IMG/VR virus record: IMGVR_UViG_3300050119_000088
Coordinates: 47,972 to 111,971 of that record
Source: a virus
Taxonomy: Duplodnaviria; Caudoviricetes
Direction: 5' to 3' (one strand)
Length of the DNA stretch: 64,000 bases
Numbering within the stretch: position 1 is the first letter of the stretch; every line of letters starts with the position of its first letter. Below the pieces are notes generated by a model. The model did not search any database. It saw only the letters and a program-made list of their open reading frames with translations, and was not told the origin of the DNA. The position numbers and the translations under genes are program-made. Positions 8,713 through 63,219 of the stretch are shown piece after piece.

Positions 8713-9159
8713 TTACTTCCCTTGTCTATTCAATTCAGCCATCTCTAAGCAAATAATTCTTCTGAGTTGTTTTGCACTTTCTGTCAAAGGCATGTTAGAT
8801 GTACTTGTACATTTAGTAAGAAATTCAAGCATCAATTCTGCTTGGGCGTGTTTTATAATAAGATAAGGCAACAGTGCTTCAAGAAACGGTTGTATTTGAT
8901 TAACTTGTAATACCCAAGTATACGCTGTTTTATAATTTTCCTTGTCTCTTAGCTTAGAGCCAATGCTACCTAATCCTGTTTTCTTTTGTAACCAATCTAC
9001 TACCGGCTTATATGTATTCGTTACAGATACATGAAGCCCATAAGTATAGTCGAGGTACTCTTTACCTCGACGCTTCTTATGTTGGTAAACGGAAATTGAG
9101 CCTTCACCGTCAACAATACCAGCGATATATGAAAGCTGGATTGGTGTAAGCAATTTCAA
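8713..9159 (-). CDS. Free-standing LAGLIDADG homing endonuclease (copy 1, divergent)
   Basis: YIAGIVDGEGSI, VTNT, LPYLIIK, PLTE..., EMAELNRQG. Confidence 0.88.
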   Translation of the reverse strand: MKLLTPIQLSYIAGIVDGEGSISVYQHKKRRGKEYLDYTYGLHVSVTNTYKPVVDWLQKKTGLGSIGSKLRDKENYKTAYTWVLQVNQIQPFLEALLPYLIIKHAQAELMLEFLTKCTSTSNMPLTESAKQLRRIICLEMAELNRQGK

Positions 9160-11177
9160 TATTGTCGCTCCGCATGGGCATTAATAATAGACTCTCTGAA
9201 CAAACCGAGACTCATATCTTGCAACTTTCTCTTCTTCTTCAGATTCTCGATAATGAGTGCATCGGACGGAAGATGGACTGCATCGATGATTGTGAGACCT
9301 TTATTAATATCCATGCCAATGCGGTGAGCGCGGTCTTCTGACTGCACACGAGACTCAGCGTTGAAGTCGTTGGAGTAATAATATTCTGTTGGTGATTCTG
9401 TGAGTGTAAGCCCAAGACCCCCTGATGCAGGGTGTGCAACGAAATTGATCTTGGCAATCTGTCGCGTCTTGTCCTGGAAAAGTTCAAGCATCTCCGATCC
9501 GCGTCGTCCATCAAGAATACCTGATCCCTTCCAACCGCGACCATCTACTCGAATGGTTTCCCATCCAAGCTTCTTGGAAGCCGCCACAATACGATCAATA
9601 GAACCTTTGAATCCAGCGAAAGTCACGAACCGACCAACATCTTCATGTTGGTCGAGAAGTTCGAGGAGGAAATCCTCTTTTGGACAAGGAACCTGAATGG
9701 CTTCTCGTTTGTATGCGGTGACAAAGCCATCTCCACCACAATTCGGACAAGTGATCTCCGCATCGGTGAAAACGTCTTCAGTGAGAACATCGGCTTTTGG
9801 CAATCGGAACAGATCACCAATCTCGACGCCGTAGCCTGAATATTGGTCGATATTCTCTGACGTGATCTCAATCTCATCTTCGACAAGCATCTTGTGCGTG
9901 ATGGTCTTGTTGCCATCACAAAGCGGGCATGGCTTGTCACCGACTTCTTCATCAACATATTGAAAACCATCACTCAGCTCCCGCAGGAGTGTCATTGCCG
10001 AGATCGTATTCTTGGCCGATGCCACAATGATCTTGGCAGCGTTCAGTGTGGCTCTGCTTGGTGCAAGCTCAATCTGTTTGTAAATCTTGTCTGGCAGATC
10101 AAGACAATCCTTTTTGAACTTGACTGTGACCAATCCCTTCATACGCTCATACAGATAGGACACTTCATTGATTGAGGGAATCCAACTATGAGCATCTGCA
10201 TGAGTAGAGAGAACTTTTGCCATTGGCCCATGAACATCATCAGACTTGAGCTTACCACAGATACCACACTTCTCGGTATTGTCAAGCCAAGTGACAAGTT
10301 GAGGATACTTGCCACCGGAAACTGCGTCCTTCATAACAATCAGTGCAAGTCGCTTCTTGAACTTCTGAGGAGTGCCCTCTTTGAGAAAGCCAGGCTGTGC
10401 AACCTCACACTGATGCCACCAATCTCCAGGATCTTTCGGTGCTGGCGATCCGCTCATTTCGATTACATAGCCATTGTAACCGTACTCAGCTCGAACGGAA
10501 TCAGCAAGATGCCTTGCAGCAACGGATCTCTGAGCCATTGGATTCTTGATCCGGCTTGATTCGTCGAAGATAACACCTTGTGGTGCCGGTTTCCCAACAG
10601 GCCAGTTCTCGACAATCTTCTTCAAGCCCTCGTAAGTGCAGAATGTCGGCTTGATCCGACAGCCCCACTTCTTCATCTCCAATTGAGCCGCGAAAAGAGC
10701 GCTCTTGGGAGCCACCCAGAACCAATCCGTGATGCCTGAATGCTCCATCACTTCGATTGCGGCAAGCGTCTTTCCGACGCCCATCTCTGCCGCCATGATA
10801 TTGTAGTGATAGGTCAAAGCATCAACAACCAGATCGATCTGGTGCTTGTAAAGCGACCGGGTCGGCTGGTAGTCGGCGATCTTCGGTCTATCGAACCAAG
10901 CGTAAGGGTTCTGTCCGCCCAAGAATGAGAGTTGAAATCGATTCCTATAAGTATCCTTAATCGTCCAAGATTTGTCGTCTGGATTCCAGCGAGCACCTTC
11001 GAAGGATTTGACTTCCTCAATCAGCTTCTTGTTGAAGCCGAATTTGAGTGTGATATTCTTTGTGTCCGAAGTGATTGTGGCGGGATAAAGAAGTGAATTG
11101 GCCATCAATTTGGTTGGGAGCATGAACATGATCAATCCTCGAAAGCTGCAAGCAGCTTGGGTGACTTGCTTTCGCAA
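9156..11177 (-). CDS. SNF2-family helicase/ATPase with zinc-finger insertions
   Basis: EMGVGKT, IFDES, SGSP, GGLGLTL, QSEDRAHRIG; real start may be ~11129. Confidence 0.9.
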   Translation of the reverse strand: MRKQVTQAACSFRGLIMFMLPTKLMANSLLYPATITSDTKNITLKFGFNKKLIEEVKSFEGARWNPDDKSWTIKDTYRNRFQLSFLGGQNPYAWFDRPKIADYQPTRSLYKHQIDLVVDALTYHYNIMAAEMGVGKTLAAIEVMEHSGITDWFWVAPKSALFAAQLEMKKWGCRIKPTFCTYEGLKKIVENWPVGKPAPQGVIFDESSRIKNPMAQRSVAARHLADSVRAEYGYNGYVIEMSGSPAPKDPGDWWHQCEVAQPGFLKEGTPQKFKKRLALIVMKDAVSGGKYPQLVTWLDNTEKCGICGKLKSDDVHGPMAKVLSTHADAHSWIPSINEVSYLYERMKGLVTVKFKKDCLDLPDKIYKQIELAPSRATLNAAKIIVASAKNTISAMTLLRELSDGFQYVDEEVGDKPCPLCDGNKTITHKMLVEDEIEITSENIDQYSGYGVEIGDLFRLPKADVLTEDVFTDAEITCPNCGGDGFVTAYKREAIQVPCPKEDFLLELLDQHEDVGRFVTFAGFKGSIDRIVAASKKLGWETIRVDGRGWKGSGILDGRRGSEMLELFQDKTRQIAKINFVAHPASGGLGLTLTESPTEYYYSNDFNAESRVQSEDRAHRIGMDINKGLTIIDAVHLPSDALIIENLKKKRKLQDMSLGLFRESIINAHAERQY

Positions 11178-11178
11178 G

Positions 11179-11715
11179 TTATATGAATACGAGAGTTCCG
11201 TCTGCTAAGCCTTGCTTCGACCACTTGCTCCAGACATCTTTCAAATGCTGTTCGGTAGCAAGTCTAAAATAAATGAGATTGAAGAAAATTCGTAACTCAT
11301 AAGATGTATGTTCTTGACAAATCTCCACAATAATATTCTTCCACACTCTCAGATTGGCCGTTGCAATAAATACGGTGTCACTGTTGCAATCGATCAATAA
11401 GTCCGTTCCAAGTTTCAAGATTTCAATAAGCAAGGCTGGTTTGACTTCACAAAGAAACGTAAGTGTAATATGCTGTAGGATGTGTTCCGCATGTTGAATC
11501 GCAACGTGTGCATCGCTACCAGGATGTCGAAATGCCGCCAAGGTTGGAATGAGTGATAGTAATGATCCCGCCTTGATTCCTGCATTGTCGCAACCGCGTG
11601 TCGGAGATACACCAGTAATAATGTGTGTATCATTGACGAAATTGTGCCAATCAAACTGCGGCACGCTAATTAATCTAACGTGCATTCCTTTTACGTACTT
11701 TTGTATTTGGCTCAT
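11179..11715 (-). CDS. Degenerate ThyX-like protein
   Basis: VRLIS, HILQHITLTF, TANLRVW, YELR resemble the ThyX scaffold; the RHR signature is missing. Confidence 0.5.
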   Translation of the reverse strand: MSQIQKYVKGMHVRLISVPQFDWHNFVNDTHIITGVSPTRGCDNAGIKAGSLLSLIPTLAAFRHPGSDAHVAIQHAEHILQHITLTFLCEVKPALLIEILKLGTDLLIDCNSDTVFIATANLRVWKNIIVEICQEHTSYELRIFFNLIYFRLATEQHLKDVWSKWSKQGLADGTLVFI

Positions 11716-11929
11716 CTAACGTTGATCCTACAGGATACTCACCGAGCAATATGAGACTATTGAGTCTCGCTTGAGCATCCACATGCTTGAAGCAACTCAT
11801 TTGATTTGGAAAAGCTTTACCTTTGTAATAGACGTAATGCTTTTTGTTTTCAAACCCAAAAAATGCAACGACCGCATCTCGTTCTGGAGATGGAGCCATT
11901 GCATCAATTGATTCATTGAGTGTAACCAT
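11675..11929 (-). CDS. Hypothetical protein
   Basis: ORF in operon orientation. Confidence 0.5.
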   Translation of the reverse strand: MVTLNESIDAMAPSPERDAVVAFFGFENKKHYVYYKGKAFPNQMSCFKHVDAQARLNSLILLGEYPVGSTLDEPNTKVRKRNAR

Positions 11930-11943
11930 ATAATACTTGAGTT

Positions 11944-13175: not shown

Positions 13176-13275
13176 CAGGGATCGCTGGAATTGAACCAGT
13201 CTTTCGTCCTTGGAAAATAGATCCTCAGAGAGGCTAATTCCAAGTTCGACGTGCAGCCGTTACACCGCAATCCCA
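13176..13275 (-). ncRNA. tRNA-like module C (UGG loop masked by an insert)
   Basis: GGGATTG/CGATCCC, GTGT-AACGGCT-GCAC D-arm, CTTGGAA/TTCCAAG, CTGG-TTCAATT-CCAG. Confidence 0.78.
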
Positions 13276-13276
13276 A

Positions 13277-13375
13277 AGGCCCAGCCAGGTTACGAGCCTG
13301 ATGTGTCACTAATGATTGTATTGAGTCTACGTCTCGTAAACACAGACTGTGCAATCATTCCGACACCGCTAGGCC
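13277..13375 (-). ncRNA. tRNA-like module D (8/4 geometry, no D-arm, long arm)
   Basis: GGCCTAGC/GCTGGGCC, CAGG-CTCGTAA-CCTG, GTGTC/GACAC, AATGATTG/CAATCATT, AGTCT/AGACT. Confidence 0.62.
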
Positions 13376-13631
13376 ATGTAAGGGCCGGGCATAATAAGAT
13401 TTACCGAATATTCTCGCATCGTAAGATGGGAGACATCCGACAGTGATCTACAAAGTGTTCCGGCCCCGCACACCGTTGAACGTTTCCGTAACGGGTACTA
13501 GTGATTACCGAAGGCCGATTTGGCAATCACCTTCCGACTTCACAACGACTTGGCCCGTTGCTGTCATCGGAATCCACACGCCACCGATCAAGATGACGTG
13601 CAGCCGGTTCGGTCACTAAGACCGTTCCAAA

Positions 13632-13895
13632 TTACGAAGGTGGAACCTGCTTGGACGGTTGAGCCGGATAGCCCATCGGCATTTGCTGGCCGGATGGCAT
13701 CGGAGCTTGTCCGACCGGGCCGGTGTACGAGTACGTCAACGTCTCATACCCACTGCAAGGAGCCATTTGCATCTGACCCTTGCAAGCCTGCTTGGCTGCT
13801 CTCTTGGCGGCTTTCGCAGCCTTGTGGCACTTGCCAGCCTCAGCCGGAAGTGACATCGCAATCAAGGCCACGAAAGCAAGTAGCATCCGAATCAT
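13632..13895 (-). CDS. Small exported protein with signal peptide
   Basis: MIRMLLAFVALIAMSLPAEA/ signal with A-x-A site; start overlaps the upstream stop (TGATG). Confidence 0.7.
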   Translation of the reverse strand: MIRMLLAFVALIAMSLPAEAGKCHKAAKAAKRAAKQACKGQMQMAPCSGYETLTYSYTGPVGQAPMPSGQQMPMGYPAQPSKQVPPS

Positions 13896-16538: not shown

Positions 16539-19304
16539 ATGCTTGCTTATGCAAGCAGAAAAACAGGATTATTCATGTTGGAAAGAAATCCAACAAAGAC
16601 CGAAGCTATTAAGATATTCCTCACCAAGTCAACACATGAGGATCTTAGTGCTTCTTACAATCATGACATGGAAGTTCAAGTCTGTGTCGAACAAGACGGT
16701 GGTACTCGCATGGAAGGCGAGTACCTAGGCAAGCAGTGGCATGGTTGGACAGATGGATTCCAAACATGGAAAACGTTTCGCATTCCATTGTTTGCCAACT
16801 CAGATCCCGTCTATGAAGACACAACCATGAATTTCGATCTTGCTGCTCATGTGAGCGCGATCGGAATGACAGGTTGGGATTGGAAGAAGCGAGTTTCACG
16901 TTGGGTTGGCTTCGATTTCGACGCGATGACAGGACACGCACAATCACATACAAACAAACTCACAGATCAACAGCTTGCGGAAGTCGAGCGTACAGCCCAA
17001 GAAATCGATTGGGTCACCGTTCGACGTTCCACATCAGGCAATGGTCTGCACTTGTATGTATATCTGGACGAGTTTCCTACAGCGAATCATGATGAGCATG
17101 CGGCCGTAGCTCGCAGCATATTGGGAACGATGTCAGCAATCACTGGCTTTGATTTCCAGGTCAAGGCCGATGCTTGTGGTGGTAATATGTGGGTCTGGCA
17201 TCGTAAGATGTTGGGCACCAATGGTCTCACTTTATTGAAGAAAGGCAGCATCCTTACAGATGTTCCCGTCAATTGGCGGGATCACATCAAAGTGATTTCA
17301 GGAGCACGGAGAAAGAATCTTCCACAGTTTATTGAAGAGAGCAAAGTCACAGGAGCCGATGCACTTTTCGACGAGTTGACTGGTCAGAGAACCATTGTTC
17401 AACTTGATGAGGATCACAAGAAGCTCGTTGAATTTCTTCGCGAGACCAACGCATGTTGGTGGTGGGATAACGACCATCACATGCTCGTTACACACACGAT
17501 TCATTTAAAAGAGGCACACGAGGCGCTCGCGTTACGAGGCAAATTTGAGACGATTGCGACGGGTAGTGAACGAGGCAACGATCAAAACTGTTTCATGTTC
17601 CCGATCCGTAAGGGAGCATGGGCGGTTCGCCGATATTCGGTTGGTGTGGCAGAAGCACCAACGTGGGATCAAGATGGCGGAGGTTGGACTCGATGCTATT
17701 TTAATCGTGATCCTGATCTGTCTTCTGCCTCCCGAGCCAATGAGGGCAACGAGCATCCCTCTGGTGGCTATCACTTTCGGCACGCTGCTGATGCAACCAA
17801 AGCTGCATTGGCTATTGGTGTTGATCTTAAGCTTCCGGTTTGGGCAAGTTCTAAAAAAGCTAAGCTAAGGCAACACAAAGACGGACGTTTGATTGCCGAG
17901 ATCGAACATGATCCTTCTGGAGATTATGCCGCAGAGATGTCTGGCTGGATTGCGGAGGGTAAATATTGGAAAAGAATCTTCAATACGAATCTTACCTCAG
18001 CCGCCGAACCAGAAATCGGAAACTACGACGATTTGGTTCGACATTTGGTTACGGGGACAGGAGAAGACTGCGGCTGGATGTTGAAGTCTGGCGACATTAT
18101 GTGGAGAAGCGAGCCGCTGATCCATGTAAGGACAGCTCTCGAATCAATGGGTATGCAACCGAAAGATACAAAGATGGTGCTTGGAAATAGCATCTTCAAG
18201 TGTTGGACGGTTGTTAATTTGCCTTTTCAGCCGGAGTATCCAGGTGATCGCCAATGGAATCGAGGAGCGGCACAATTCAAATATCTTCCTTCACGAACTG
18301 AAGAAAGGCACTTTCCGCATTGGTCGATGATCCTGAATCATATTGGTCAGGGTCTTAATGAAGCGATTGCGGAAAGCGGTTGGGCTCGAACCAACGGCAT
18401 TCTGACAGGAGCGGATTATCTCAAGGTCTGGATTGCAAGTTTGTTCCAGTCGCCAATGGCACACTTGCCTTATTTGTTCTTGTATTCAGAAGCACAGAAT
18501 ACTGGAAAGTCTATTTTCCATGAGGCTCTTGCACTGTTGATTACGCGAGGCATGGTTCGAGCTGATTCAGCTCTTACAAGCACTGGCAATTTCAACGGTG
18601 AATTGGAGAATGCCGTTCTTTGCGTTGTTGAAGAAACCGATCTTCGACGCAATAAGCTGGCATATGCTCGAATCAAAGATTGGGTGAACTCACAAGAACT
18701 TCCGATCCACAAGAAAAATCTTACACCATACGGTATTCCCAATACAACACATTGGGTGCAGTGTGCGAATGATCACCAGGCATGTCCTGTATTCAGCGGC
18801 GATACACGGATTACTATGATTCAAGTTGAACCTATTAACAAGGCAAACTTGATTCCAAAGCCCCTTATGCTTGCGGCTTTGGTCAAGGAAGCTCCAGACT
18901 TTTTGGCGGAAGTTCTCGCTCTTGAGATTCCGCCAAGCAATGATCGATTGAACGTTCCGGTTATTACAACCGAAGAGAAAGCACAGCTCGAGAAAACGAA
19001 TCAGACGTATTTGCAAATGTTTATTGCAGAGAATTGTCATCCTGTCACGGGCGTTATGATCAAGTTCTCAGAATTTTGCGATAAGTTTCAAGAATGGCTT
19101 GGCCCGGCACAGGCTTCGGAATGGTCCAAGATTCGGATCGCTCGAGAGTTGCCACCACAATTTCCATCGGCTCGTATTCCGACGACGGGATACAAACACA
19201 TTGGAAACATTTCGTGGGAGGCTTATCGAAGTGGCGATCCGATTCTTCCAAAATTGGTCGTTCGAGATGATAAGTTGGTTCCCTCATCTGGGGGAAAGCA
19301 ATGA
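16539..19304 (+). CDS. AEP-type primase fused to a C-terminal P-loop (SF3/DUF5906-like) helicase
   Basis: GFDFD, STSGNGLHLY; LYSEAQNTGKS Walker A, VVEE Walker B, GDTR. Confidence 0.87.
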   Translation: MLAYASRKTGLFMLERNPTKTEAIKIFLTKSTHEDLSASYNHDMEVQVCVEQDGGTRMEGEYLGKQWHGWTDGFQTWKTFRIPLFANSDPVYEDTTMNFDLAAHVSAIGMTGWDWKKRVSRWVGFDFDAMTGHAQSHTNKLTDQQLAEVERTAQEIDWVTVRRSTSGNGLHLYVYLDEFPTANHDEHAAVARSILGTMSAITGFDFQVKADACGGNMWVWHRKMLGTNGLTLLKKGSILTDVPVNWRDHIKVISGARRKNLPQFIEESKVTGADALFDELTGQRTIVQLDEDHKKLVEFLRETNACWWWDNDHHMLVTHTIHLKEAHEALALRGKFETIATGSERGNDQNCFMFPIRKGAWAVRRYSVGVAEAPTWDQDGGGWTRCYFNRDPDLSSASRANEGNEHPSGGYHFRHAADATKAALAIGVDLKLPVWASSKKAKLRQHKDGRLIAEIEHDPSGDYAAEMSGWIAEGKYWKRIFNTNLTSAAEPEIGNYDDLVRHLVTGTGEDCGWMLKSGDIMWRSEPLIHVRTALESMGMQPKDTKMVLGNSIFKCWTVVNLPFQPEYPGDRQWNRGAAQFKYLPSRTEERHFPHWSMILNHIGQGLNEAIAESGWARTNGILTGADYLKVWIASLFQSPMAHLPYLFLYSEAQNTGKSIFHEALALLITRGMVRADSALTSTGNFNGELENAVLCVVEETDLRRNKLAYARIKDWVNSQELPIHKKNLTPYGIPNTTHWVQCANDHQACPVFSGDTRITMIQVEPINKANLIPKPLMLAALVKEAPDFLAEVLALEIPPSNDRLNVPVITTEEKAQLEKTNQTYLQMFIAENCHPVTGVMIKFSEFCDKFQEWLGPAQASEWSKIRIARELPPQFPSARIPTTGYKHIGNISWEAYRSGDPILPKLVVRDDKLVPSSGGKQ

Positions 19305-21920: not shown

Positions 21921-21921
21921 A

Positions 21922-50176: not shown

Positions 50177-50219
50177 GATCTTGACAATCTGTTAGAGGTG
50201 CTTCATAACAAAATAGAAA

Positions 50220-50678: not shown

Positions 50679-50679
50679 A

Positions 50680-53229: not shown

Positions 53230-55805
53230 TACATTCCTTTACGTTGCCGCGTTGGTACATATTGTGGTAATGAAACATTTCCCAAGAGAGTAGTTGGTTG
53301 TGCTCCATTGAAATAATTCAGATTGGTTGTATCACGACTCGGATTTGATACACCAAAATCATCAACATTAGCCCAACCGGCCGTAGCACCACAATCAACA
53401 GCAAATACAAGAACACTGTTTTGTGGGATAGGCGTCATCGTATATGAAAGCTGTTCCCATGTTCCATTTGCTGCAACAGATACAGCAAGAATCGTTTCAT
53501 TTGCATAATTATTCGTAGGATCTTTGAGAATCACTAAACGCGGAGCAGTGCCAGCGTATGCAATTCCACCGGCGTCAGTAACAACACTTTTTCTAACCCA
53601 CACTGAAATTGTTGGTGTATCGCCGCTTAGGCAAGCAACCAAGAAAGAAAAGATTGTTGTTTGGTACTGAAGTTGATTCGGAGTCATACGCAAACTTTTA
53701 GTGCCTGCGTGTTTGATTACAGTATCCGTAGAATATGTTCCCGAATTTGTAACCGCTTTATGTACGCCATTTACTTGGCCAAATCGCATAAATGACAAGC
53801 CACCAAGCATATTTTGTGGATTGTGAATAAGATTGGTTGAACTAAAGATGCAGTTGTTGAAACTAATATTTGTTGTGTTAACTGAATTATAATAAATATC
53901 AGCACTTGTATGATTCAGAAAAGTGCAATTTTCAAAAGCGACGGAACGAAGAGCTTGATTTTGTAGAAAGATGCCAGATGCAGCTTGTCCGCTACCTGAT
54001 CCACCATTGATGATGCAATTTCGGATTATGAAAGGATAATTGATTCCGCCACTAAATTGTATTTGTCCTGTTTGATTGGCATATAGATTCCATGTGTCGA
54101 GAATCATATAGTTTGAATTATTAGCGAAATATGCTGAATAAATTGTGAGACCTGTTGTTCTCCACATAGTGACATTACTAAGCAGACCCATATTGTTTGA
54201 AATATATACGCCGTTTCCACCGCAACTATGTGCTGTCAGATTGCCAAATGTACCAGTAGCAGGAGCATTGCCTGTATTTTGTCCAAATTGAAAAGCATTG
54301 CTTTGGCAAGACGAAATAGTGCAATTCGTCATTGTGAAATCAAGAGTTTGAACAGCAATACCGTTTGCACCTGAACCTGTCAATATCATATAAACATAAT
54401 TGATCACTAAGCCAGCTGTTGTACTCTTTGATGACGTAAAGCCTTGTGAAACATTATAAATAACACAATGTTGGAAATTGATTCCTGTACAAGGATAACC
54501 ATCAAACTGTCCAAAGCCAAGTTGAATGCTGGAAGAGCTTCCAAAATCATGGAAACTGCAATTTGTAAAGTTTGAATGGGTTCCAGTTATACCGCCGTAT
54601 ACTTGCAAACCACCACCAGCATTGCTCCCAAAAATATTCCATTCGGTGTATGTATAATCACCCGTTGTGCCATAGTTAGTACGAAAATTACTCGATGATG
54701 TATTGCTTTTGAAGACAACATTTCGTGTAAGATTCAATACTTCGCAAATATATGGTGCTGTTCCTGTATGTGCTTTCGTCAAAGCAGCACAAGTGATTGT
54801 AAGACCAGAAATACCAGTTATGACTTTCGTTTCATAGTCAGACCAATTGACAGTGCTCGAAGATAAAACTACTGTATCACCAACAAGCCATCCTGTTGTA
54901 TCAGTGACAGAGAATGTTGTTGCAGTAGCAGCAACATCAGCACTAAGATAGGTAGCACCTGTCTTAATCGAACCATATGTTTGGACTGTTACCAAATCAT
55001 CAAGTAATATTTGATTGCCCGATCCAGTGCTTATGTCAAGCGTCACACTCGAAGTCGAAGGCATCGGAGCAACTGATGTTCCAAGAGTCATATTACTACG
55101 CAAATGGAACCAAATAGTACCATTTACTTTGAAATAATAGGCTGTTGAGGTTACAATGTAGGTTGAAAATGTGCAACCATCCATTATATCCAAAGAAGCA
55201 ACGGTATTTGTAGCCGAAGTCGTATCAATTGATACGGTAAATGTATTATTGACACCAACTCCAGTACGCTCACCTGTAATGATTAACGTATCACCAGATG
55301 TTGCGGGAGCTTGTGCTGTTGTGGTTCGTAAATATCGGCAAATATTTGTGCTTGAACCGCTTGCACAAACAAAACTCAAACTACCTGTTCCAGTTCCACC
55401 ACCAACTACTTGAACAGCATAAACTGTGCTTGCCAAAAGCGTAATTGGTACAGGAAACTTGAAGAATATCCAACCTATTTGAGAATTTGTTGTACTGTTA
55501 TTGTTTGGAAAATCACTGAAACCAAGACTAATAACTGTTCCAGTGACAATAGCAGAACCAGATACATTATACAAGCGTGCTGTTAATGTACCTGTTCCAC
55601 TAAATGCAATATTGGCATACAAACCGATTCCGTCAACAGTAATTGCACCCGGTGTAAAGGATGCTCCTTGTACGGAAGCCGTTCCAGAAAGAAAATTTAC
55701 ATTTCCTGTCTGGGATACTTGTGTCTGAAACGATGTCGTATCCGCAACGGACCATGTGGTCGAAGATGATACGGCACCATTAGCTTTTGCAAGGAGTACC
55801 GACAT
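53229..55805 (-). CDS. Large beta-helix virion protein, paralog 1
   Basis: TGWLVGDTVVLSS, EVLNLTRNV, F.NC.F repeats. Confidence 0.72.
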   Translation of the reverse strand: MSVLLAKANGAVSSSTTWSVADTTSFQTQVSQTGNVNFLSGTASVQGASFTPGAITVDGIGLYANIAFSGTGTLTARLYNVSGSAIVTGTVISLGFSDFPNNNSTTNSQIGWIFFKFPVPITLLASTVYAVQVVGGGTGTGSLSFVCASGSSTNICRYLRTTTAQAPATSGDTLIITGERTGVGVNNTFTVSIDTTSATNTVASLDIMDGCTFSTYIVTSTAYYFKVNGTIWFHLRSNMTLGTSVAPMPSTSSVTLDISTGSGNQILLDDLVTVQTYGSIKTGATYLSADVAATATTFSVTDTTGWLVGDTVVLSSSTVNWSDYETKVITGISGLTITCAALTKAHTGTAPYICEVLNLTRNVVFKSNTSSSNFRTNYGTTGDYTYTEWNIFGSNAGGGLQVYGGITGTHSNFTNCSFHDFGSSSSIQLGFGQFDGYPCTGINFQHCVIYNVSQGFTSSKSTTAGLVINYVYMILTGSGANGIAVQTLDFTMTNCTISSCQSNAFQFGQNTGNAPATGTFGNLTAHSCGGNGVYISNNMGLLSNVTMWRTTGLTIYSAYFANNSNYMILDTWNLYANQTGQIQFSGGINYPFIIRNCIINGGSGSGQAASGIFLQNQALRSVAFENCTFLNHTSADIYYNSVNTTNISFNNCIFSSTNLIHNPQNMLGGLSFMRFGQVNGVHKAVTNSGTYSTDTVIKHAGTKSLRMTPNQLQYQTTIFSFLVACLSGDTPTISVWVRKSVVTDAGGIAYAGTAPRLVILKDPTNNYANETILAVSVAANGTWEQLSYTMTPIPQNSVLVFAVDCGATAGWANVDDFGVSNPSRDTTNLNYFNGAQPTTLLGNVSLPQYVPTRQRKGM

Positions 55806-55826
55806 TCTTACTCCGGGGAGTCGATC

Positions 55827-56252
55827 ATGAAATCATTATCTGAAAAAGAGAAAGCTGTTCTTGCAATGGCAATTGATTGCGAAGGACATATTTCTTTGTC
55901 ACTACATGAAAAGACTAAAAGAAATAGTTTTACTTGTAGTGTTGTTGTTAGAATCATGAATACAAATATTGATTTACTACACCACATACAATCAATGACA
56001 AGAATAGGTGTCGTTGATCCACAAACAAAGATTCCAAAACGAAAATTACAATACATTTGGAGACTTCGTACACACGAAATGGAAGATTTTCTTGAAGCAA
56101 TTAAAAATGATCTTGTAATCAAAAGAGATCAATGTGTAATTGCTCTTGAATATCTGACACGTGATTGGCAAAATCCGTTATCAGAAGATGATCTTCAGTT
56201 TCGTCGTGTTGCATTTTCTGAGATGCAAGAACTCAATCAGAAAGGAGATTAA
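55827..56252 (+). CDS. Free-standing LAGLIDADG endonuclease (copy 5), antisense
   Basis: LAMAIDCEGHI; GGGGAG RBS; stop overlaps the portal stop (TTAA). Confidence 0.88.
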   Translation: MKSLSEKEKAVLAMAIDCEGHISLSLHEKTKRNSFTCSVVVRIMNTNIDLLHHIQSMTRIGVVDPQTKIPKRKLQYIWRLRTHEMEDFLEAIKNDLVIKRDQCVIALEYLTRDWQNPLSEDDLQFRRVAFSEMQELNQKGD

Positions 56253-58105
56253 GGTGCAGCCTTCCCACGCTGCTTGTTGGTTACGGTGTCGTCGGTCGTA
56301 GTATCCGTTGAAGTCTTTTTCTCAGTTGAACCAGACTTGTTGTCTGCTCCCAAGTCTGGTACGCCTCTAGCTTGGGCTGTGTCTCCGGCGGCTGCTCCGA
56401 ATCCTTTGCCCACGGCTTGTGATGTTGCGATTCGAGCCAAGCGGTCAGCGTGATCAACCTTGGCTTTCTCGACTTCGCCCGGAGGATAGCCTCTCGCAGC
56501 GGAGGCTGTTTCGAGAGAAACGAGTCCTTCTTCGATATCGGAAGCAATGACAACTGGATCACCCATCACGACAGGAGCGGCGTCGATTTCTTTAAGTACC
56601 GTGAGAAGCTTCGGCGTCGGAACTTTCCCACGGAGCATGATTGTGGCAATCTGTTTTGCCATTTCACGCTGGTACGTCAGCGAAGGCATATTCGGCATGA
56701 GTTCCTGGAAGTCTTTGGCTGATTGGTGACGATCTTTATCGCTTGTGAGAGCATAATTTTCAGGATAAGCCACTGTAGCATTGGCTTTTCCTTCATAAAG
56801 TGCCCAATATTCCGCGATTTTACGTTCACCATGCTCCAAAGCCATCCCAATATATGACAAACCGCTCTCCAAAGTGGGATCTGGCACATCAATACCACCG
56901 CCAGATGTCTTCGGTTGGAGATTTTCAATAGTCAAATTAATAAGCTGACGAATTTCAGCCTTCAATTGTTGCTGCTTCGCCATTGAAGCAGTCATCGGCT
57001 CGGATGACGGATGTATAAACGCAGGACGTTCAACACCTATGGGATATTGACGACCACCCGTCGCTCCGACCTTAACTTCACGAACTTTTTCCTGGTACGA
57101 TGTTTCAGTTGAGAAAACATTACCAAAAGCATCAGGCGGAGTCTGTGTAGACGTTGCGGAACGCTCACCTTTGAGGTAAGGACTCTCAGAACGATTGTCA
57201 AATTGCTCTGTGTAAAATGGAAAATTGGCTTTTAGTGCATAATTCATGTCACTTGAGGCCAAATTCAACAATGCAATTTGATAATCTGCAACATCTGTGA
57301 GCAAGGAATCACTAATTTCAAAGAGAACAAATGGAATTCGTTTGATCGGTAGGACGATTTCATAATCATCCGTCTGATCACCAGTGATTGGGTCAATCGC
57401 ATTTCCATCAGTATCATAAAACAAACAGTGTACAAGATCGTCATCACCAATGAAAACATGACGGTAACGTGTGATTGTGCCAATCGGAAGTCCAGTCTCA
57501 ATATCCAGCTCATAATCTTCGTCTTGAAGTACAATTGATGTAAATTCATTGCTCAAAGCTGTGTTATCATACGTCCAAGAGCGAATAGATTCAGTACGAT
57601 AGAGATAAATATAGGGCTTTTTGTCGCCTTTGTGAGCGATTGTGGGACCACTGAGCGGTGGCATATCGACATAGACGCCGACACGAGACATGCTCAATAA
57701 TTCCGGAATAATATAACGCCCAATGAAACTGTTCATTGAGCTGCCCAACATATCAACACCACCATCAAGACCCTTGACGGCTCGTTGATATGTTGGGTCG
57801 CCACCCTCTCGGGTGACATCTACCATTCGCTGAAAAATACTGTTGCGAATATCGTTCAGTGCTGCTTTTGCGAATGCAGGACAATAAGTAATCTCTTTGC
57901 GGAGCTTGAAATCAACGTCATCTTCGCGTTTGGAGAGCTTTTTCAAATAAACTGCAGTAAAAGCTTCTCCGCCGATGTAGGTTAGACGCCATTTCCGCCA
58001 GAAATATTCTTGTCCAGTGTAGTAAGGATGCTTGAATTCACTCAATTTGAGTGTCGTCGAGCTACTTCCTCCACTAATCGGAACAGCACCATTGACAAAG
58101 GACAT
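56249..58105 (-). CDS. Portal protein
   Basis: Follows TerL; HPYY, YL....RE...DF..R, GVYVDMP, PYIY.Y..E.I..W, IPFV; start revised by AGGAAAG RBS. Confidence 0.85.
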   Translation of the reverse strand: MSFVNGAVPISGGSSSTTLKLSEFKHPYYTGQEYFWRKWRLTYIGGEAFTAVYLKKLSKREDDVDFKLRKEITYCPAFAKAALNDIRNSIFQRMVDVTREGGDPTYQRAVKGLDGGVDMLGSSMNSFIGRYIIPELLSMSRVGVYVDMPPLSGPTIAHKGDKKPYIYLYRTESIRSWTYDNTALSNEFTSIVLQDEDYELDIETGLPIGTITRYRHVFIGDDDLVHCLFYDTDGNAIDPITGDQTDDYEIVLPIKRIPFVLFEISDSLLTDVADYQIALLNLASSDMNYALKANFPFYTEQFDNRSESPYLKGERSATSTQTPPDAFGNVFSTETSYQEKVREVKVGATGGRQYPIGVERPAFIHPSSEPMTASMAKQQQLKAEIRQLINLTIENLQPKTSGGGIDVPDPTLESGLSYIGMALEHGERKIAEYWALYEGKANATVAYPENYALTSDKDRHQSAKDFQELMPNMPSLTYQREMAKQIATIMLRGKVPTPKLLTVLKEIDAAPVVMGDPVVIASDIEEGLVSLETASAARGYPPGEVEKAKVDHADRLARIATSQAVGKGFGAAAGDTAQARGVPDLGADNKSGSTEKKTSTDTTTDDTVTNKQRGKAAP

Positions 58106-58351
58106 ATTTGCTTTCCTAATCAATACTGAGAACCACCCAAAGCCCATTTGTCTGACATTGGGCGGATTTGGGTTGATCAAAGAGTTTAAGCCATTCTTCG
58201 GCTGTCCACGTCTTGATCCTGGCTGGAAACCCGTTAACCAGCCATTTGGTTTCGTTGTCTTGCGGCTCCATCGCCGGTTTCTCTTCACCGTACACTAGAG
58301 ACAACATCGTCTCGTCCTGATTGTGCTAATCCGTGATCTCTGACGCGAATA

Positions 58352-60025
58352 TTACATAATATTGTTGGGCATATCCCGAGACTTACCAAGAGCTACTGCG
58401 AGCGGCATTGCGATTTCTGAATAATTACGTGCATGAGCATAGTGGTCATCGATTGCAGGAGCCTTCACATACCGCCCGATCGGGTTTCCTTCTTTGTCTT
58501 TTTCGTAAACACGCACAAGCGCTTTAAGATGGCCACGGTACTCAAGATCAATATCCAGAGGTAGAGAAATGGATCTTCGAGGCCCATGATATCTACCAAG
58601 AGACAGATCGAGCCAGCTTGTGCGATCAACATCGACCGCAGGCTCCGTATCATCTTTAAGCTTGATTTGTTTGCCTGTAACACCTTGTGCGTAAAAACAT
58701 AGGCGAACTTTACCCCAAAACCGACAAGCAAATTCATAAGCTTTGCGTCGCTCAGGATTTGCATCAATAACGCAGAAGTTGATGCCCCACTGTGTCATCA
58801 AGAGATCGAGTTCATCAAAATTACGCACCTTACCGAATTTGACTGTACGACAACGAGATAGGACACTAATATCTGCACCTGATACGTTACTTGGGAGGAA
58901 CCATTCATCAATGTGGTAGTGAAGCCATGTTCCGACATCAACACCCATTGTAGTTACATTTGGCGTGATAACATCACCATTCTTATGGCTACCACGACAT
59001 GCATCGAGATCGGCATCTGTAATCCGGGCACCTTCAACTGCATGTGGCAATCCGAGTTTCGAGTTATAGAATTCTTGCTCGGCTGCCTTGTCACTTAAAG
59101 ATTCAAGATACAACTTTGCGATTTCACCAGGTGATACTGTGCAACTATAGAGCTGATTAATGTACCAGCCTTCAGTATCTCGCCCGGTGTGGCCAGGTTG
59201 CCAAATTCCTTTGGCAAGAAAGTCAGTCTTAGCAGCATGTTCAAGAATATGCTGGCAATTCGGACAAATCAGATGCGACTGGTGTATCTGTTGATTGTTA
59301 GGATCATCGCCAACTATGACTAATGATTTCGGAAACGTGAGTTCAACATGGCGGCTGCAATGAGGACAAGGAAAGAAAAAATGATTTTGAGTAGAAGCGT
59401 TGAATTCTTTGTTAATGCCATAGTTTTCAATCGTTGCTGTGGAAATCATCCAAAGAGCTTTTTCGACTTGTCCTGAAGAACGTTCCTTGACTAGAGGAAT
59501 ATTCTCCTGTGTCATTTCATCTAGCTCATCTAGAATGATGAGTCCAACCGGAACGGACTTCAAACCAGAACGGGAGCGTGAACCGCGTATGAAGAGATTG
59601 TTTGTACCGGCTCTTTTGTGACCAATGTTTTTCACTTCGGAAAACATATTCGACAAATGCGGCGATAGTTCCAAGGCTGGATCGAATCGTGAAGCAGAGA
59701 AATCCGAAGCATCAGGCGTTTTTGCTGGAAGAATATAAAGACAGTCAACGCCCTTTTGATCAATATTGTAGAATGTAACATTCAAGACGGTTTCAGTGTA
59801 TCCCATCTGAGCAGACTTCTGGCCTACATTAACCTCGGCTTCAGAATCATGCATAGCACGAAGCCAAGGATGATGCTTAAAGGTCCAGGCACCCGGATAA
59901 GGTTTTCCCATGACTCGGCAAGCACAAGCCCAACGTGAGCATTTACTCAGGGATTTACGTTTAAGTCCCTCATTAATGCGTTGGGCCATCAAAATGGCTA
60001 AGTCATGCATAGATTGGCCAATCAA
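58352..60025 (-). CDS. terL: Terminase large subunit (lambda GpA-like)
   Basis: KSAQMGYTE, ILDELD, IST, CPHC/CPNC, LGLP, MGVDVG, DHYAHA. Confidence 0.92.
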   Translation of the reverse strand: MIGQSMHDLAILMAQRINEGLKRKSLSKCSRWACACRVMGKPYPGAWTFKHHPWLRAMHDSEAEVNVGQKSAQMGYTETVLNVTFYNIDQKGVDCLYILPAKTPDASDFSASRFDPALELSPHLSNMFSEVKNIGHKRAGTNNLFIRGSRSRSGLKSVPVGLIILDELDEMTQENIPLVKERSSGQVEKALWMISTATIENYGINKEFNASTQNHFFFPCPHCSRHVELTFPKSLVIVGDDPNNQQIHQSHLICPNCQHILEHAAKTDFLAKGIWQPGHTGRDTEGWYINQLYSCTVSPGEIAKLYLESLSDKAAEQEFYNSKLGLPHAVEGARITDADLDACRGSHKNGDVITPNVTTMGVDVGTWLHYHIDEWFLPSNVSGADISVLSRCRTVKFGKVRNFDELDLLMTQWGINFCVIDANPERRKAYEFACRFWGKVRLCFYAQGVTGKQIKLKDDTEPAVDVDRTSWLDLSLGRYHGPRRSISLPLDIDLEYRGHLKALVRVYEKDKEGNPIGRYVKAPAIDDHYAHARNYSEIAMPLAVALGKSRDMPNNIM

Positions 60026-60033
60026 ATAAAGTG

Positions 60034-60098
60034 CTCTCCGCCCAACGCGTTGGGCGAAGAGCCCAAGTACGGCGAACTTTGGGGTAATCCAAAGTTCG
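60034..60098 (-). promoter_or_regulatory. Two hairpins immediately upstream of terL
   Basis: CGCCCAACGCGTTGGGCG palindrome and CGAACTTTGG/CCAAAGTTCG. Confidence 0.55.
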
Positions 60099-60099
60099 A

Positions 60100-60327
60100 T
60101 TATCGAATACTACCCTTGACCCGAGGCTGATCGATGGAAGGCGTAATGTTGTTGCCATACACATCGACATTGCTCACAGGAGGAATGTACAGCATCGGTT
60201 GGCTCATCGGCTGCTTTTTGAGATCATTTGTCTCTTTAGCAGTGTTGTTTGAGCCATTCGGCTGGATAACGGTGACGCCTTGGACGCCAATGTTTCCGCC
60301 TTCGAGCCCTTCACCATGTGAGTTCAT
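60100..60327 (-). CDS. Hypothetical protein
   Basis: ORF in operon. Confidence 0.5.
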   Translation of the reverse strand: MNSHGEGLEGGNIGVQGVTVIQPNGSNNTAKETNDLKKQPMSQPMLYIPPVSNVDVYGNNITPSIDQPRVKGSIR

Positions 60328-60352
60328 GTTACCTTGATTGCTCCGTTAAAGG

Positions 60353-60541
60353 TCAGCCGCCCTTGCCGGGTGCGGTGTTCGGGGTGGTGGACGACGAGTT
60401 GTTCGGATTTCCGTTGGCTGGAATGTTGGCCACACTGACCACACCCGGAACATAGCCACTGTTGGGCTGATCCGCCGTGCCGCCAGTCTTGGCAGGTTGA
60501 ACGACGTTCTGAGCAACACCTTCACCGATCTGTTGAGTCAT
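60353..60541 (-). CDS. Hypothetical low-complexity protein
   Basis: GAGGAG RBS before MTQQ. Confidence 0.55.
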   Translation of the reverse strand: MTQQIGEGVAQNVVQPAKTGGTADQPNSGYVPGVVSVANIPANGNPNNSSSTTPNTAPGKGG

Positions 60542-60569
60542 GATTCTCTCCTCCTCTAAGGGCCTTAAG

Positions 60570-60989
60570 ATGCTCCATCTTACTGAATGCAAGCGAGAAG
60601 TCTTGGCAATGGCTATTGATTGCGAAGGCTGGATTGCCTTTGCATGTAATAAGAAGCAAAACTACAATATAGTTGCATTAGTTGGAATTTCAAATACAAA
60701 GATCAAACTCTTGAGGCATATTCAAGACATGACAGGAATTGGATCTATTGGTCCCAAACCTAAGCCCAAAGGAAAACGGGCTCAAGGATACCAATGGAAT
60801 TTACGTTCATACGAAATGAGAGCATTTCTTGAAGCAATTCAGCCGTATTTGATTATCAAATCAGAACAGTGTGAACTTGCTTTGAAATTTCTAAAATACG
60901 GATGGAGCAGACCGTTGAATACTGAAGATATTAATCTTCGAGAGGAATGGGCTGAAAAGATGATTGCACTCAATGAGCGTGGAGCTTAA
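60570..60989 (+). CDS. Free-standing LAGLIDADG endonuclease (copy 6), antisense
   Basis: LAMAIDCEGWI; stop overlaps the convergent stop (TTAA). Confidence 0.88.
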   Translation: MLHLTECKREVLAMAIDCEGWIAFACNKKQNYNIVALVGISNTKIKLLRHIQDMTGIGSIGPKPKPKGKRAQGYQWNLRSYEMRAFLEAIQPYLIIKSEQCELALKFLKYGWSRPLNTEDINLREEWAEKMIALNERGA

Positions 60990-61525
60990 TCAAGCTCAGG
61001 CTTCAAATTGAGGATTGCTCTTGCAATCTTGTTGCTGATCGCATCAATGGCGTTTTCGTCCTTGACTTCCTCGCTAATGATTGCGACGATCTGTGTAGCG
61101 AGACTCAAGGCACTGCTCTTATCAAGTAACATGCCCAGATTTGATTCGAGTTTGTTACACGAGGTAACAAGTTTCTCGATTTTCATAAGCATGTCAGAGA
61201 TTTTGCCGCTATATAAGAGTAATTCACCTTGCGACTTACAAGAGGTGATTACATTCTCTAAAACGACACGAGCAATTCCGATTTCTTCACGTAGCGACTT
61301 AACGCCATCATGATCAGTGAATTCGTTAGCTCGAGTTTGCCATTGTGCAAGATGATAGCCGCGAATGATTTTCTTTTGGGCTACTTCTTGGGCTCGATTA
61401 CCGCCATGCATAGGGCAATATGAAGAACCTTCAGCCGCTTTGTAGGGACACTGACCATTCGTGTATGATGACTGACAGCGGCGAGGATCACTTTCTTCTA
61501 CTCGCTCAAATTTGGATTCTATCAT
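60986..61525 (-). CDS. Putative terminase small subunit
   Basis: RC......QC........CPMHGG zinc motif, SLREEIGIAR; upstream of terL. Confidence 0.62.
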   Translation of the reverse strand: MIESKFERVEESDPRRCQSSYTNGQCPYKAAEGSSYCPMHGGNRAQEVAQKKIIRGYHLAQWQTRANEFTDHDGVKSLREEIGIARVVLENVITSCKSQGELLLYSGKISDMLMKIEKLVTSCNKLESNLGMLLDKSSALSLATQIVAIISEEVKDENAIDAISNKIARAILNLKPELD

Positions 61526-61619
61526 TTGTGGGTCTGCTTATAAGTTAACCAGACTGGAACACCAAGGTAATGTTCCAGTCTGGGAGATAGCATCAGAGGA
61601 GATGATGCTACCGTCGATC

Positions 61620-62414
61620 TCAGATATTTTCAGCAAGCAGTGTGAGTGCCCACTTAACGAGAGCGAGCCAGGGAACCGGAGCCAGCTTGGCGAAGCCCGC
61701 AGCGTTGCGGTCACTGACGATAGTATTGAGATGTGAGAGAGCTTGCTCATCATCAAGAGCAGCCATTGGCTGGGGAATAACTTGACCAGCCTCGTCGAGT
61801 TGGCCGCCAGGCTGATTGCTGTTCGGACGCCGAGGATCGATTGGAAGATTCGGTGCGTCGGGATCGAGTCCAGGAGCATGGGCAGGAGCCAACGGTGCAG
61901 CCATTGGATTGTCGGGATTGGCGACGGGGAGTTCTGGATTGTGATGAACAGGATGCTGTTCACCTTCAGTGTGCTCGCCTTCAGCGTGCTCGCCTTCAGC
62001 GTGCTCGCCTTCAGGCTTGTGCTCGCCTTCAGGCTTGTGCTCGCCTTCAGGCTTGTGCTCTTCGGTGCCGACGTTCCGAGCAAGATGGTCAGACTGAATG
62101 TGCCCACCCTCCTCATTGCCGGAAGGAGCTTTGTCTTGAGCAAGTGTCGAGACTTGTGGCTCGTTGCCTGTAGTAACCGGTTTGACCAAAGTGTCCGGAG
62201 CGCGAACATCCTTTGGTGTACCTGCCGGACGCTTGGAATCCACCGCCGGCAAAGCAGGAAGGCTTTCGCCAAGCGATGACTTGAGCCCGTATCCCACGAT
62301 GTTCCACAGTGACTCGGCTGTGGCGGGCAAAGATGTTTTGAGATTGCCTGCTTTGATTGCCGCAATCACTGTCACTACTGAATCAGTAGGTAGTTCCGCA
62401 GGATACCTAACCAT
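61620..62414 (-). CDS. Hypothetical protein with HKPEGE/HAEGE repeats and amphipathic C-terminus
   Basis: 18-bp and 15-bp tandem repeats at ~61960-62062; first gene after promoter copy 4. Confidence 0.7.
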   Translation of the reverse strand: MVRYPAELPTDSVVTVIAAIKAGNLKTSLPATAESLWNIVGYGLKSSLGESLPALPAVDSKRPAGTPKDVRAPDTLVKPVTTGNEPQVSTLAQDKAPSGNEEGGHIQSDHLARNVGTEEHKPEGEHKPEGEHKPEGEHAEGEHAEGEHTEGEQHPVHHNPELPVANPDNPMAAPLAPAHAPGLDPDAPNLPIDPRRPNSNQPGGQLDEAGQVIPQPMAALDDEQALSHLNTIVSDRNAAGFAKLAPVPWLALVKWALTLLAENI

Positions 62415-62477
62415 CGTGGTTGGCTCGTTTTTGGACCAAAGTTATGCCAACGTCAACGCCCTAGATGACGACAAGGC

Positions 62478-62507
62478 ATATTACGGCAATGAGGCAGGAT
62501 TTTGAAG
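62478..62507 (-). promoter_or_regulatory. Conserved phage promoter copy 4 (TTCAAA-17-TAATAT)
   Basis: Repeated motif; heads the morphogenesis operon. Confidence 0.75.
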
Positions 62508-62620
62508 TATACTTTTTTTTGGACCGAAAAGCGGCCCACTACTCTTAGAATCAAGTATTATTTGATTTTAAGAATCAGTTCTGCAAGCCAAGCTGTGTTG
62601 AATAAAATAAAATATTTTGC

Positions 62621-62649
62621 TTGACATTCATGATTGTTTATGTTACAAT
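62621..62649 (+). promoter_or_regulatory. Near-consensus sigma70 promoter
   Basis: TTGACA-17-TACAAT with extended TG and AT-rich upstream element. Confidence 0.8.
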
Positions 62650-62694
62650 GGAAGTAGGACCGAATTCTTTATTGATTGGATTGGAGCTTTGATT

Positions 62695-63219
62695 ATGCAA
62701 TCACTCACCTGCTGCCAGAAGACCACACTTGCAATGGCTGTTGATTGTGAAGGTTGCTTGTCTCTTTGTTATGTGGGAAGAAAAGCACAAACATATACGT
62801 GTACTGTTAGTGTTGGTATTTCAAATTCAAATTTGGAGTTTCTTGAATATTTGCAAGATATGGTTGGCTATGGTACAATTAGTCCTTTTGGAAAAGTTGA
62901 TGGTTGGAAACAAGTCTACAATTGGAGAATTGGATTGGACAATCAAATTATGTTTCTTGAGGCAATTGAAAAGAACCTCATTATCAAATGGGAACAATGT
63001 CGTATTCTCTTGGAGTATTTGAAACGTGATTGGGAAGATCCCTTGTCACATGACGATATTCGCCAGAAAATGTATTGGGTGAAGAAAATTTGCGAGGTGA
63101 AAAAATTTAAAAAAAAAATTGAAAAGTCGATTTCAGATTTTGAAAATCCGAAAATCGATTTTGAGAATCTTTGTGAAATTGCCACAAAATATTTCGGATT
63201 GAAAATCCCGGAGTTCTGA
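62695..63219 (+). CDS. Free-standing LAGLIDADG endonuclease (copy 7) with aberrant C-terminal extension
   Basis: LAMAVDCEGCL, ISNSN, FLEAI, W..PLS; GGAG RBS. Confidence 0.85.
   Translation: MQSLTCCQKTTLAMAVDCEGCLSLCYVGRKAQTYTCTVSVGISNSNLEFLEYLQDMVGYGTISPFGKVDGWKQVYNWRIGLDNQIMFLEAIEKNLIIKWEQCRILLEYLKRDWEDPLSHDDIRQKMYWVKKICEVKKFKKKIEKSISDFENPKIDFENLCEIATKYFGLKIPEF

Follow-up and report, generated by a model that had tools for sequence, protein, structure and literature searches.

Ten paralogous, free-standing LAGLIDADG genes of the I-CreI type, probably homing endonuclease genes, in a 112-kb uncultured phage

The stretch of 64,000 nucleotides analyzed here, hereafter the window, is the right-hand part (positions 47972–111971) of IMG/VR virus record IMGVR_UViG_3300050119_000088, the genome of an uncultured phage. 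The whole record (G000; 111,971 bp) is graded complete by CheckV. It carries ten paralogous, free-standing genes that, with a probability of roughly 0.7, encode homing endonucleases of the I-CreI type (single-domain, homodimeric). Seven of them (c1 to c7) lie in the window and three to the left of it (Table 1); together they occupy approximately 4.4 kb or 3.9% of the genome, as calculated from the coordinates. This set is unusually large for LAGLIDADG enzymes in one phage. The kind of element is already known, as 62 GenBank phage records carry single-domain genes of this kind. What is new is the number of copies, the shared ancestry of nine of them, and two insertion scars that predict target sites.

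The seven window open reading frames (ORFs) are free of internal stops and can be aligned over their whole length. A family profile based on the alignment of all ten copies (A2) recovers each of them in a six-frame search of the genome at E values of 3e-51 to 1e-65, and hence, the resemblance of the copies is not due to chance. A profile search of the whole record yields ten intact paralogs of 135 to 174 residues with a single profile match each and no frameshift or internal stop in any copy. Each gene has a start and a stop of its own and is located between host genes. An earlier note on this DNA, made from the letters alone, had described seven related genes; all of their coordinates and strands are confirmed, and its count holds for the window, the genome total being ten. 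The overlaps that it named at the junctions also hold: TTGA at c1, ATGA at c2 and c3, TGATG between c2 and the exonuclease gene, and two TTAA stop–stop overlaps (c5/portal and c6/g179). Its total of three antisense cases has to be raised to four (c4, c5, c6, and c7).

The ten-copy profile matches I-CreI chains across the whole domain, that is, positions 10–139 onto 10–137 at an E value of 2.7e-8, and, in addition, I-CvuI, I-MsoI, and I-OnuI-type enzymes. The AlphaFold2 model of c5, calculated with A2, reaches a pLDDT of 91.1 and a pTM of 0.83 and features the α-β-β-α-β-β-α core fold: helices 6–19, 48–58, and 82–95 and strands 20–28, 35–45, 62–65, and 76–79. In a Foldseek comparison with the PDB, I-CreI (1bp7) ranks first with a TMq of 0.80—followed by I-MsoI, I-CvuI, and I-Vdi141I—and 120 PDB chains are found at an E value of 1e-3 or lower. 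Rfam at gathering thresholds detects neither a group I nor a group II intron in the window or in the loci of the three further copies (L008–L010); one tRNA is its only match in all of this sequence. The I-CreI profile match, the fold, and the lack of any detected intron identify the copies as free-standing, single-domain, I-CreI-like LAGLIDADG genes, in agreement with what the earlier note had read as single-motif proteins outside of any intron context. All seven window copies also match the PHROG family phrog_5046, labeled "HNH endonuclease," at E values of 2e-29 to 2e-10.

The LAGLIDADG motif takes the form (L/I/V)A..(I/V/F)D.EG in all ten copies, each of which ends the helix with a conserved acidic residue followed by glycine. 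Thirteen columns are invariant, among them D17, E19, G20, N45, K99, and Q102. E19 of the motif is aligned to the second D of DGDG in I-CreI, which we take to be D20, and the invariant lysine to the K of LKLKQKQ, presumably K98. Other motifs named earlier are likewise present: the LAMAIDCEG-type helix, NTN, TG.G, W.L, EM..FLEAI, PLS, and the C-terminal EM.ELN..G. Cleavage by I-CreI-like LAGLIDADG enzymes is metal dependent, addresses a long site of approximately 20 bp, and leaves 3′ overhangs of 4 nt. The conservation of catalytic-type motif residues in all ten copies largely argues against catalytically dead proteins.

The two-copy homodimer model obtains a score of 0.73, the best of three controls reaching 0.01. 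Of 30 proteins solved as same-chain pairs, 20 attain the dimer mark applied here, compared with 1 of 23 single-chain structures. Contact agreement among the homodimer runs is at least 84%, and the pLDDT of the partner is at least 88. The predicted interface comprises residues 6–19, 45–53, and 97–98 and places both E19 residues opposite each other. Each protein, a single domain, probably acts as a homodimer, as judged by this model; the pass is not independent proof and may only mirror the likeness to I-CreI, since I-CreI dimers have already been solved.

In base composition and flanks, the copies look inserted. Their GC content is 31 to 39% in all ten cases versus 41 to 48% in the 2-kb flanks, which amounts to a difference of 7 to 11 points. 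Flank repeats were assessed by local alignment of 250 bp on each side with 100 shuffles per copy; three of the ten copies (c3, c4, and c8) carry repeats that score above all 100 shuffles. The clearest is a 47-bp direct repeat at c4, with a score of 51 versus a shuffle maximum of 23. Its left copy is joined to the body of a 178-residue gene, and its right copy is orphaned. The 178-residue gene begins with MKIQG, MKIAGKKIEG, or MKLNGKKIEGPN in relatives, which confirms its start position. At c3, the end of the exonuclease gene, encoding STAEVYRRMLTV and a stop, overlaps the start of c3, and a stretch encoding MLATAEVYRRMLSI and a stop is found directly behind the stop codon of c3. All nine residues of this repeat are identical, and its six base differences are all synonymous according to manual reading. 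The exonucleases of relatives end in AEVYRRM followed by 3 to 15 residues. Both clear scars share one orientation: The endonuclease gene is touched at its 3′ end by the orphan copy and has the live copy on its 5′ side.

The third copy with flank repeats is c8. The start of c8 lies 3 nt behind a tRNA-Thr(TGT) gene, and the unit of tRNA-Thr and c8 (G000 16737–17289; L008 approximately 1460–2030, minus strand) is located between 22-bp repeats that resemble 5′ parts of tRNAs. One of the flank fragments also carries a T-loop-like stretch, GGTTCGATTCC; Rfam makes no tRNA call on the flank fragments even at E 5, the T-loop-like 11-mer being the only further mark. The locus gives the impression of a decayed tRNA cluster that the insertion has interrupted. 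The N termini of the nearest foreign protein, P0021, and of the long form of the c8 ORF look like read-through translation of tRNA sequence, and for this reason a tRNA probably precedes the P0021 gene too. IMG/VR scans with P0021 and with another foreign relative, P0019, return either nothing or just N-terminal matches of tRNA-like character.

Homing, including cutting and gene transfer, is the predicted activity of the ten proteins. Each protein would pair through its LAGLIDADG helix, and the dimer would cut a long, roughly symmetric site in related co-infecting phage genomes without that gene. Repair of the break from the gene-carrying genome would copy the gene together with its flanks—a process of intronless homing as known for the Seg and Mob genes of T4. 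New sites would probably be reached by one-ended repair with homology on the 5′ side and an illegitimate joint just behind the stop codon: The break in the recipient would lie inside the end of the neighboring gene, the end of the donor gene and the endonuclease gene would be copied, and a short duplicate of the neighbor's end would be left behind, as at c3 and c4. The arrangement of orphan and live copies in both scars fits such one-ended repair. Placement in start/stop overlaps or antisense gaps would allow the genes to sit in the genome at little cost to the phage.

Relatives, in which the earlier note had proposed to look for empty sites, provide empty or short junctions. The portal protein has many relatives at 46 to 68% identity, at least 120. 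An alignment of 20 portals led to 80 metagenome loci and 80 IMG/VR loci; some contigs occur in both sets, which are thus not independent. The family is present in none of the 80 portal-centered metagenome loci (725,619 bases), the control recovering 10 of 10 copies in the own genome. It occurs in 1 of 30 related IMG/VR records (G013, with two copies) and in none of the five that are at least 90% complete. The G013 copies are 30 to 39% identical to those here, and their best matches are other database sequences. Gaps were compared in six fetched relatives by tblastn coordinates. The genes flanking c4 are 15 to 90 nt apart in five of the six versus 516 nt here; in the sixth, G001, they are separated by approximately 830 nt with an unrelated ORF in between (G001 29372–30202). 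The gap between g179 and the terminase gene is 29, 67, and 354 nt in three of five relatives versus 960 nt here, where it holds c6 and two small ORFs; in the other two, it holds 4.1 and 6.1 kb of other cargo, and the G013 record ends before the gap. In some relatives, unrelated cargo occupies the junctions that hold c4 and c6 here, which marks both as hot spots of insertion in general. The c4 and c6 copies are not fixed at the same sites in all relatives. The cargo at the g179–terminase junction spans approximately 13890–20000 in L180 (G001) and approximately 1850–5920 in L204 (G004) and includes a thioredoxin gene; Pfam finds no endonuclease among ten ORFs of these two inserts, only thioredoxin and a weak β-helix match. 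One of the G013 copies (9427–9849, minus strand; L178) lies directly upstream of the helicase gene, c1 here lies directly downstream, and the two proteins are 36% identical.

GenBank phages give no match to window positions 20000–40000 (megablast), to c5, or to the portal (both tblastn). An IMG/VR scan with the portal alone returns nothing, and one with alignment A1 returns only 4 distant loci. DNA of the phage is present in two peat-metagenome runs, either of which is possibly the source; no RNA run is among the listed holders. On window positions 44001–64000, each run provides a contig of approximately 110 kb that runs across c5 and c6 and a second one that runs across c7. No contig joint that skips a copy is found on this part in either run; as contigs drop rare variants, this says nothing on the absence of empty alleles.

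Several observations weigh against the assignment as homing endonuclease genes. Seven of the ten copies show no flank repeat above the shuffle maximum, and clear duplications of a neighboring gene are found at two copies only (c3 and c4), next to the tRNA-like repeat at c8. The relatives used for the empty sites are distant, with portals 41 to 52% identical; hence, the absence of copies shows a gain somewhere on this lineage without showing present-day mobility. No prominent symmetric candidate site is found at the junctions, none having a 22-bp pseudo-palindrome above background nearby. The cut-off of Pfam PF00961 (LAGLIDADG_1; 23.1 bits) is reached by one of the seven window copies, namely c1 with 27.2 bits; four others score 13.9 to 18.8 bits, and c6 and c7 have no Pfam match at all. 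A third active-site position of I-CreI, presumably Q47, aligns to a variable column of the sequence alignment, the invariant N of NTN lying two positions further. Finally, the tight fit into operons and the depth of divergence are also compatible with genes that benefit the phage itself and are retained for that reason.

The Pfam scores and the unconserved third position would be in line with nuclease-dead relics or with DNA-binding regulators that derive from LAGLIDADG proteins and act without cutting; adoption of inactive LAGLIDADG derivatives by hosts is on record in a review (PMC3384342). Such an origin is nonetheless very unlikely here. The acidic residue and the lysine at the I-CreI active-site positions are invariant in 10 of 10 copies, the E19 residues oppose each other in the dimer model, and no copy is disrupted by frameshift or internal stop.

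In another alternative, the proteins are domesticated competition nucleases, which were once homing and are now immobile, kept by selection because they cut host or satellite DNA or, in the manner of marker exclusion, the genomes of related co-infecting phages. All ten genes are intact at 26 to 55% identity, which is not expected of a purely selfish fixed element, and six copies are translationally coupled to host genes via ATGA or TTGA overlaps. The lack of a copy-lacking allele in the two runs, weak because it is based on contigs, points the same way. However, real insertions are evident from the c3 and c4 scars and from a distribution that is patchy (1 of 30 relatives), and the low GC content of every copy suggests incomplete adaptation to the genome. 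Domesticated and homing nucleases would alike cut a genome without the gene at a specific site, and sequence cannot separate the two. Domestication is, on balance, possible but clearly less probable than active homing endonuclease genes.

The common descent of the copies was followed in a much larger family. Out of 1.84 billion representatives, the profile matches 23,832 with an E value of 1e-3 or lower; 7256 of these reach 1e-10, and 47 reach 1e-30. In a FastTree phylogeny of 233 domain rows, each covering at least 90 profile positions, nine copies fall into a 12-row clade (support 99) together with the foreign proteins P0019, P0021, and P0024; c1 is placed elsewhere. None of 500 label shuffles reaches an equal clustering. 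The IQ-TREE quick tree of 55 rows supports the clade with 96 and places c1 beyond a branch with an SH-aLRT of 98. In the approximately unbiased (AU) test, a strict ten-copy clade is not rejected (p 0.065), at a log-likelihood lower by 54, so that the separateness of c1 depends on branch support only. The three foreign clade members are 40 to 56% identical to the nearest copy. P0019 and P0024 are both tied to a contig of 25,522 bp; two or more copies are thus probably present in one related phage. P0057, which falls on the same side of the tree as c1, lies on a 110,247-bp contig together with a portal relative.

Ten independent captures of unrelated environmental LAGLIDADG genes would be easy to draw from a family of this size, and the position of c1 and the three foreign sequences within the nine-copy clade would agree with them. 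This origin is highly improbable all the same: The single well-supported clade of nine copies, the label shuffles, and the AU result each argue against it. Pairwise identity among the ten copies is 26 to 55% with a mean of 40%, and c1 is 26 to 36% identical to the other window copies; given this divergence, the expansion is old. That all ten are nevertheless open reading frames points to maintained function. With foreign sequences in the clade, c1 outside, and identities this low, an old ancestral duplication and repeated import from related phages fit alike. The claim of the earlier note that the lineage spread within one genome is therefore not upheld, and the monophyly that it proposed to examine stands for nine of the ten copies, with c1 outside and three foreign members inside. 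Exchange between paralogs may also have taken place: c5 (56055–56141) and c2 (24112–24198) share 87 nt at approximately 90% identity, the best 20-codon window being 88% identical in DNA versus 63% for the genes overall, and this stretch may be a case of gene conversion. The predicted DNA-facing strands and loops of the ten copies have a mean pairwise identity of 28% versus 45% elsewhere (Mann–Whitney p 5e-4). This variability may be a sign of shifting specificity, and a weak one, since surface loops vary more than the remainder in most proteins.

Pairing of the paralogs with each other in one infected cell, suggested earlier as a source of new specificities, is doubtful. It would turn ten monomers into up to 55 dimers and open asymmetric sites outside the reach of the homodimers, and mixed dimers would allow the lineage to jump to new junctions. 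The helix reads LAMAIDCEG identically in c3, c5, and c6 and LAMAVDCEG in c7, at an overall identity among them of only 39 to 49%, and this helix belongs to the modeled interface. Of the 142 best non-own database relatives, 82 are two-domain fusions and 60 have one domain; the halves of the two-domain relatives are 36 to 43% identical in the six examined, from which it follows that diverged domain pairs of this family work together. 

Among the closest known systems are single-domain, free-standing genes of isolated phages: those of Gordonia, Streptomyces, Caulobacter phiCbK-like, Pseudomonas KIL, and Sphingobium Lacusarx phages and the members of PHROG 5046. A tblastn search with c1 finds relatives at 65 places in the 62 GenBank phage records, and 41 of these records cover at least 80% of c1. 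The genes are approximately 120 to 150 residues long, lie under no larger annotated gene, and are often annotated as "LAGLIDADG endonuclease" or "HNH endonuclease." The rarity of such enzymes among free-standing phage endonucleases had thus been overstated in the earlier note. The isolated-phage genes differ in being less than 60% identical to c1 throughout (26 to 38% among the matches listed) and in occurring once or twice per genome, whereas ten copies are present here. None of them is matched at E 1e-3 by c5, a member of the nine-copy clade.

The homodimeric single-motif enzymes I-CreI, I-MsoI, and I-CvuI belong to group I introns in rRNA genes of algal chloroplasts. They share with the phage proteins the fold and length, the acidic residue and lysine at active-site positions, and the predicted LAGLIDADG-helix dimer. 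The identity in structural alignments is, however, only 14 to 18%, the phage motif has E where I-CreI has its second D, and the genes here are phage borne, outside introns, and present as ten diverged copies. According to a 2026 study, the I-CreI-type family occurs in fungal mitochondria, in the chloroplasts of algae, and in archaea (PMC13619312).

The Seg (GIY-YIG) and Mob (HNH) genes of T4-like phages provide a second parallel: many free-standing genes between or beside essential genes of one phage, distributed patchily among relatives. The free-standing homing endonucleases known from T4 are GIY-YIG or HNH enzymes. segB is reported as GIY-YIG and lies within a tRNA cluster (PMC2330249), comparable to c8 directly behind a tRNA gene. 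The T4-like pattern is described as a nuclease domain plus a separate DNA-binding domain (PMC10448857); in contrast, the ten copies here are LAGLIDADG proteins with one compact domain for binding and cutting, and all stem from one protein family. Pectobacterium phage CB7 is reported to carry 23 homing endonuclease genes, the free-standing ones being HNH and the LAGLIDADG ones residing in inteins (PMC7344957), and in a survey of phage nuclease genes, at least 8 of the 20 LAGLIDADG genes counted reside in inteins (PMC10448857). As judged by titles and abstract openings, no published phage was found in which free-standing LAGLIDADG genes form a multi-copy family. The scars also have a counterpart in fungal mitochondria, where partial C-terminal duplications of cob and atp6 are described beside free-standing LAGLIDADG and GIY-YIG ORFs (PMC6279837). 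There too, an endonuclease ORF lies next to a short copy of its neighbor's end, as it does at c3 and c4; the fungal cases differ in that they concern organelle genomes with often degenerate ORFs—in the phage, the ORFs are intact—and in that the sequence duplicated at c4 is the 5′ end of a gene, including the ribosome-binding region.

The engineering of meganucleases has its classic scaffold in homodimeric I-CreI-type enzymes, and this genome offers ten natural, intact, diverged variants. For two of them, the scars predict where the cut would be located: the 3′ end of the exonuclease gene and the 5′ end of the 178-residue gene. The set bears on how a free-standing endonuclease gene reaches a new site without killing the neighboring gene and on how DNA specificity drifts among paralogs. 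In addition, it adds a LAGLIDADG case to the nuclease genes found beside essential phage genes (PMC10448857).

Table 1. Coordinates of the LAGLIDADG genes and the features at their junctions (window positions unless marked G000)
Feature	Position	Strand	Remarks
c1, LAGLIDADG gene, 148 aa	8713–9159	−	TTG start; TTGA overlap with stop of helicase-like gene 9156–11177; Pfam LAGLIDADG_1
c2, LAGLIDADG gene, 143 aa	23884–24315	+	ATGA overlap with upstream stop; own stop in TGATG with exonuclease start
DnaQ-like exonuclease gene between c2 and c3	24315–24917	+	RNase_T 1.6e-13; C terminus STAEVYRRMLTV, the copy of the duplicated end next to the endonuclease gene
c3 flank repeat, left copy	24882–24907	+	Encodes TAEVYRRML inside the live exonuclease gene; score 27, shuffle maximum 25
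c3, LAGLIDADG gene, 143 aa	24914–25345	+	ATGA overlap with exonuclease stop
Displaced remnant of exonuclease 3′ end, MLATAEVYRRMLSI and stop	25345–25389	+	Contains right repeat copy 25354–25379
GC-rich hairpin and T-run after exonuclease remnant	approximately 25404–25436		
c4 flank repeat (47 bp), left copy	36942–36988		On minus strand: ribosome-binding region and codons 1–9 (MKINGETIQ) of live 178-aa gene 36432–36968
c4, LAGLIDADG gene, 143 aa	36999–37430	+	Antisense, between two minus-strand genes
c4 flank repeat, right copy	37427–37475		Orphan ribosome-binding region and codons 1–9 of 178-aa gene; touches c4 stop codon
c5, LAGLIDADG gene, 141 aa	55827–56252	+	Antisense; TTAA stop–stop overlap with portal gene 56249–58147 (−)
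c6, LAGLIDADG gene, 139 aa	60570–60989	+	Antisense, between g179 (179-aa gene, 60986–61525) and large terminase gene 58352–60025
c6/g179 junction			TTAA stop–stop overlap
Promoter-like site	62621–62649	+	11/12 consensus positions, TG before −10 hexamer; 45 nt upstream of c7 start; consensus match only
c7, LAGLIDADG gene, 174 aa	62695–63219	+	Antisense; C terminus diverged, extended
Three further copies left of window	G000 10938–11345, 13260–13691, 16757–17182	− (all)	All open; loci L008–L010

PHROG scans assign no family to ten small ORFs neighboring the copies. Within the right c4 repeat, a 15-bp palindrome was considered as a target site and dropped, with 7 of 11 on the pseudo-palindrome measure. 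Three genes upstream of c2, a 386-residue protein (21922–23082, plus strand) features an HNH-endonuclease-like stretch (residues 10–74) fused N-terminally to a DNA methyltransferase (phrog_56, E 2e-54). The extended C terminus of c7 contains a short periodic repeat with DFEN occurring twice (63096–63206), and promoter-like matches recur every 21 nt in the same stretch, of which 63096–63126 was treated as a repeat in contig mapping.

Two further regions of the window stand out in contig mapping. Approximately 48090–48450, within a gene at 47877–48731 (minus strand), is covered by many short contigs of other organisms or strains, with joints, loose ends, and GC-rich triplet-like sequence, which suggests that the encoded 284-residue protein has a repetitive, possibly collagen-like segment. 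Long contigs end at 62030 and 63746, and several short alternative contigs of both strands and both runs cover 63745–63968, over the last 250 bases of the record; the record may close with a repeat or with a terminus that varies.

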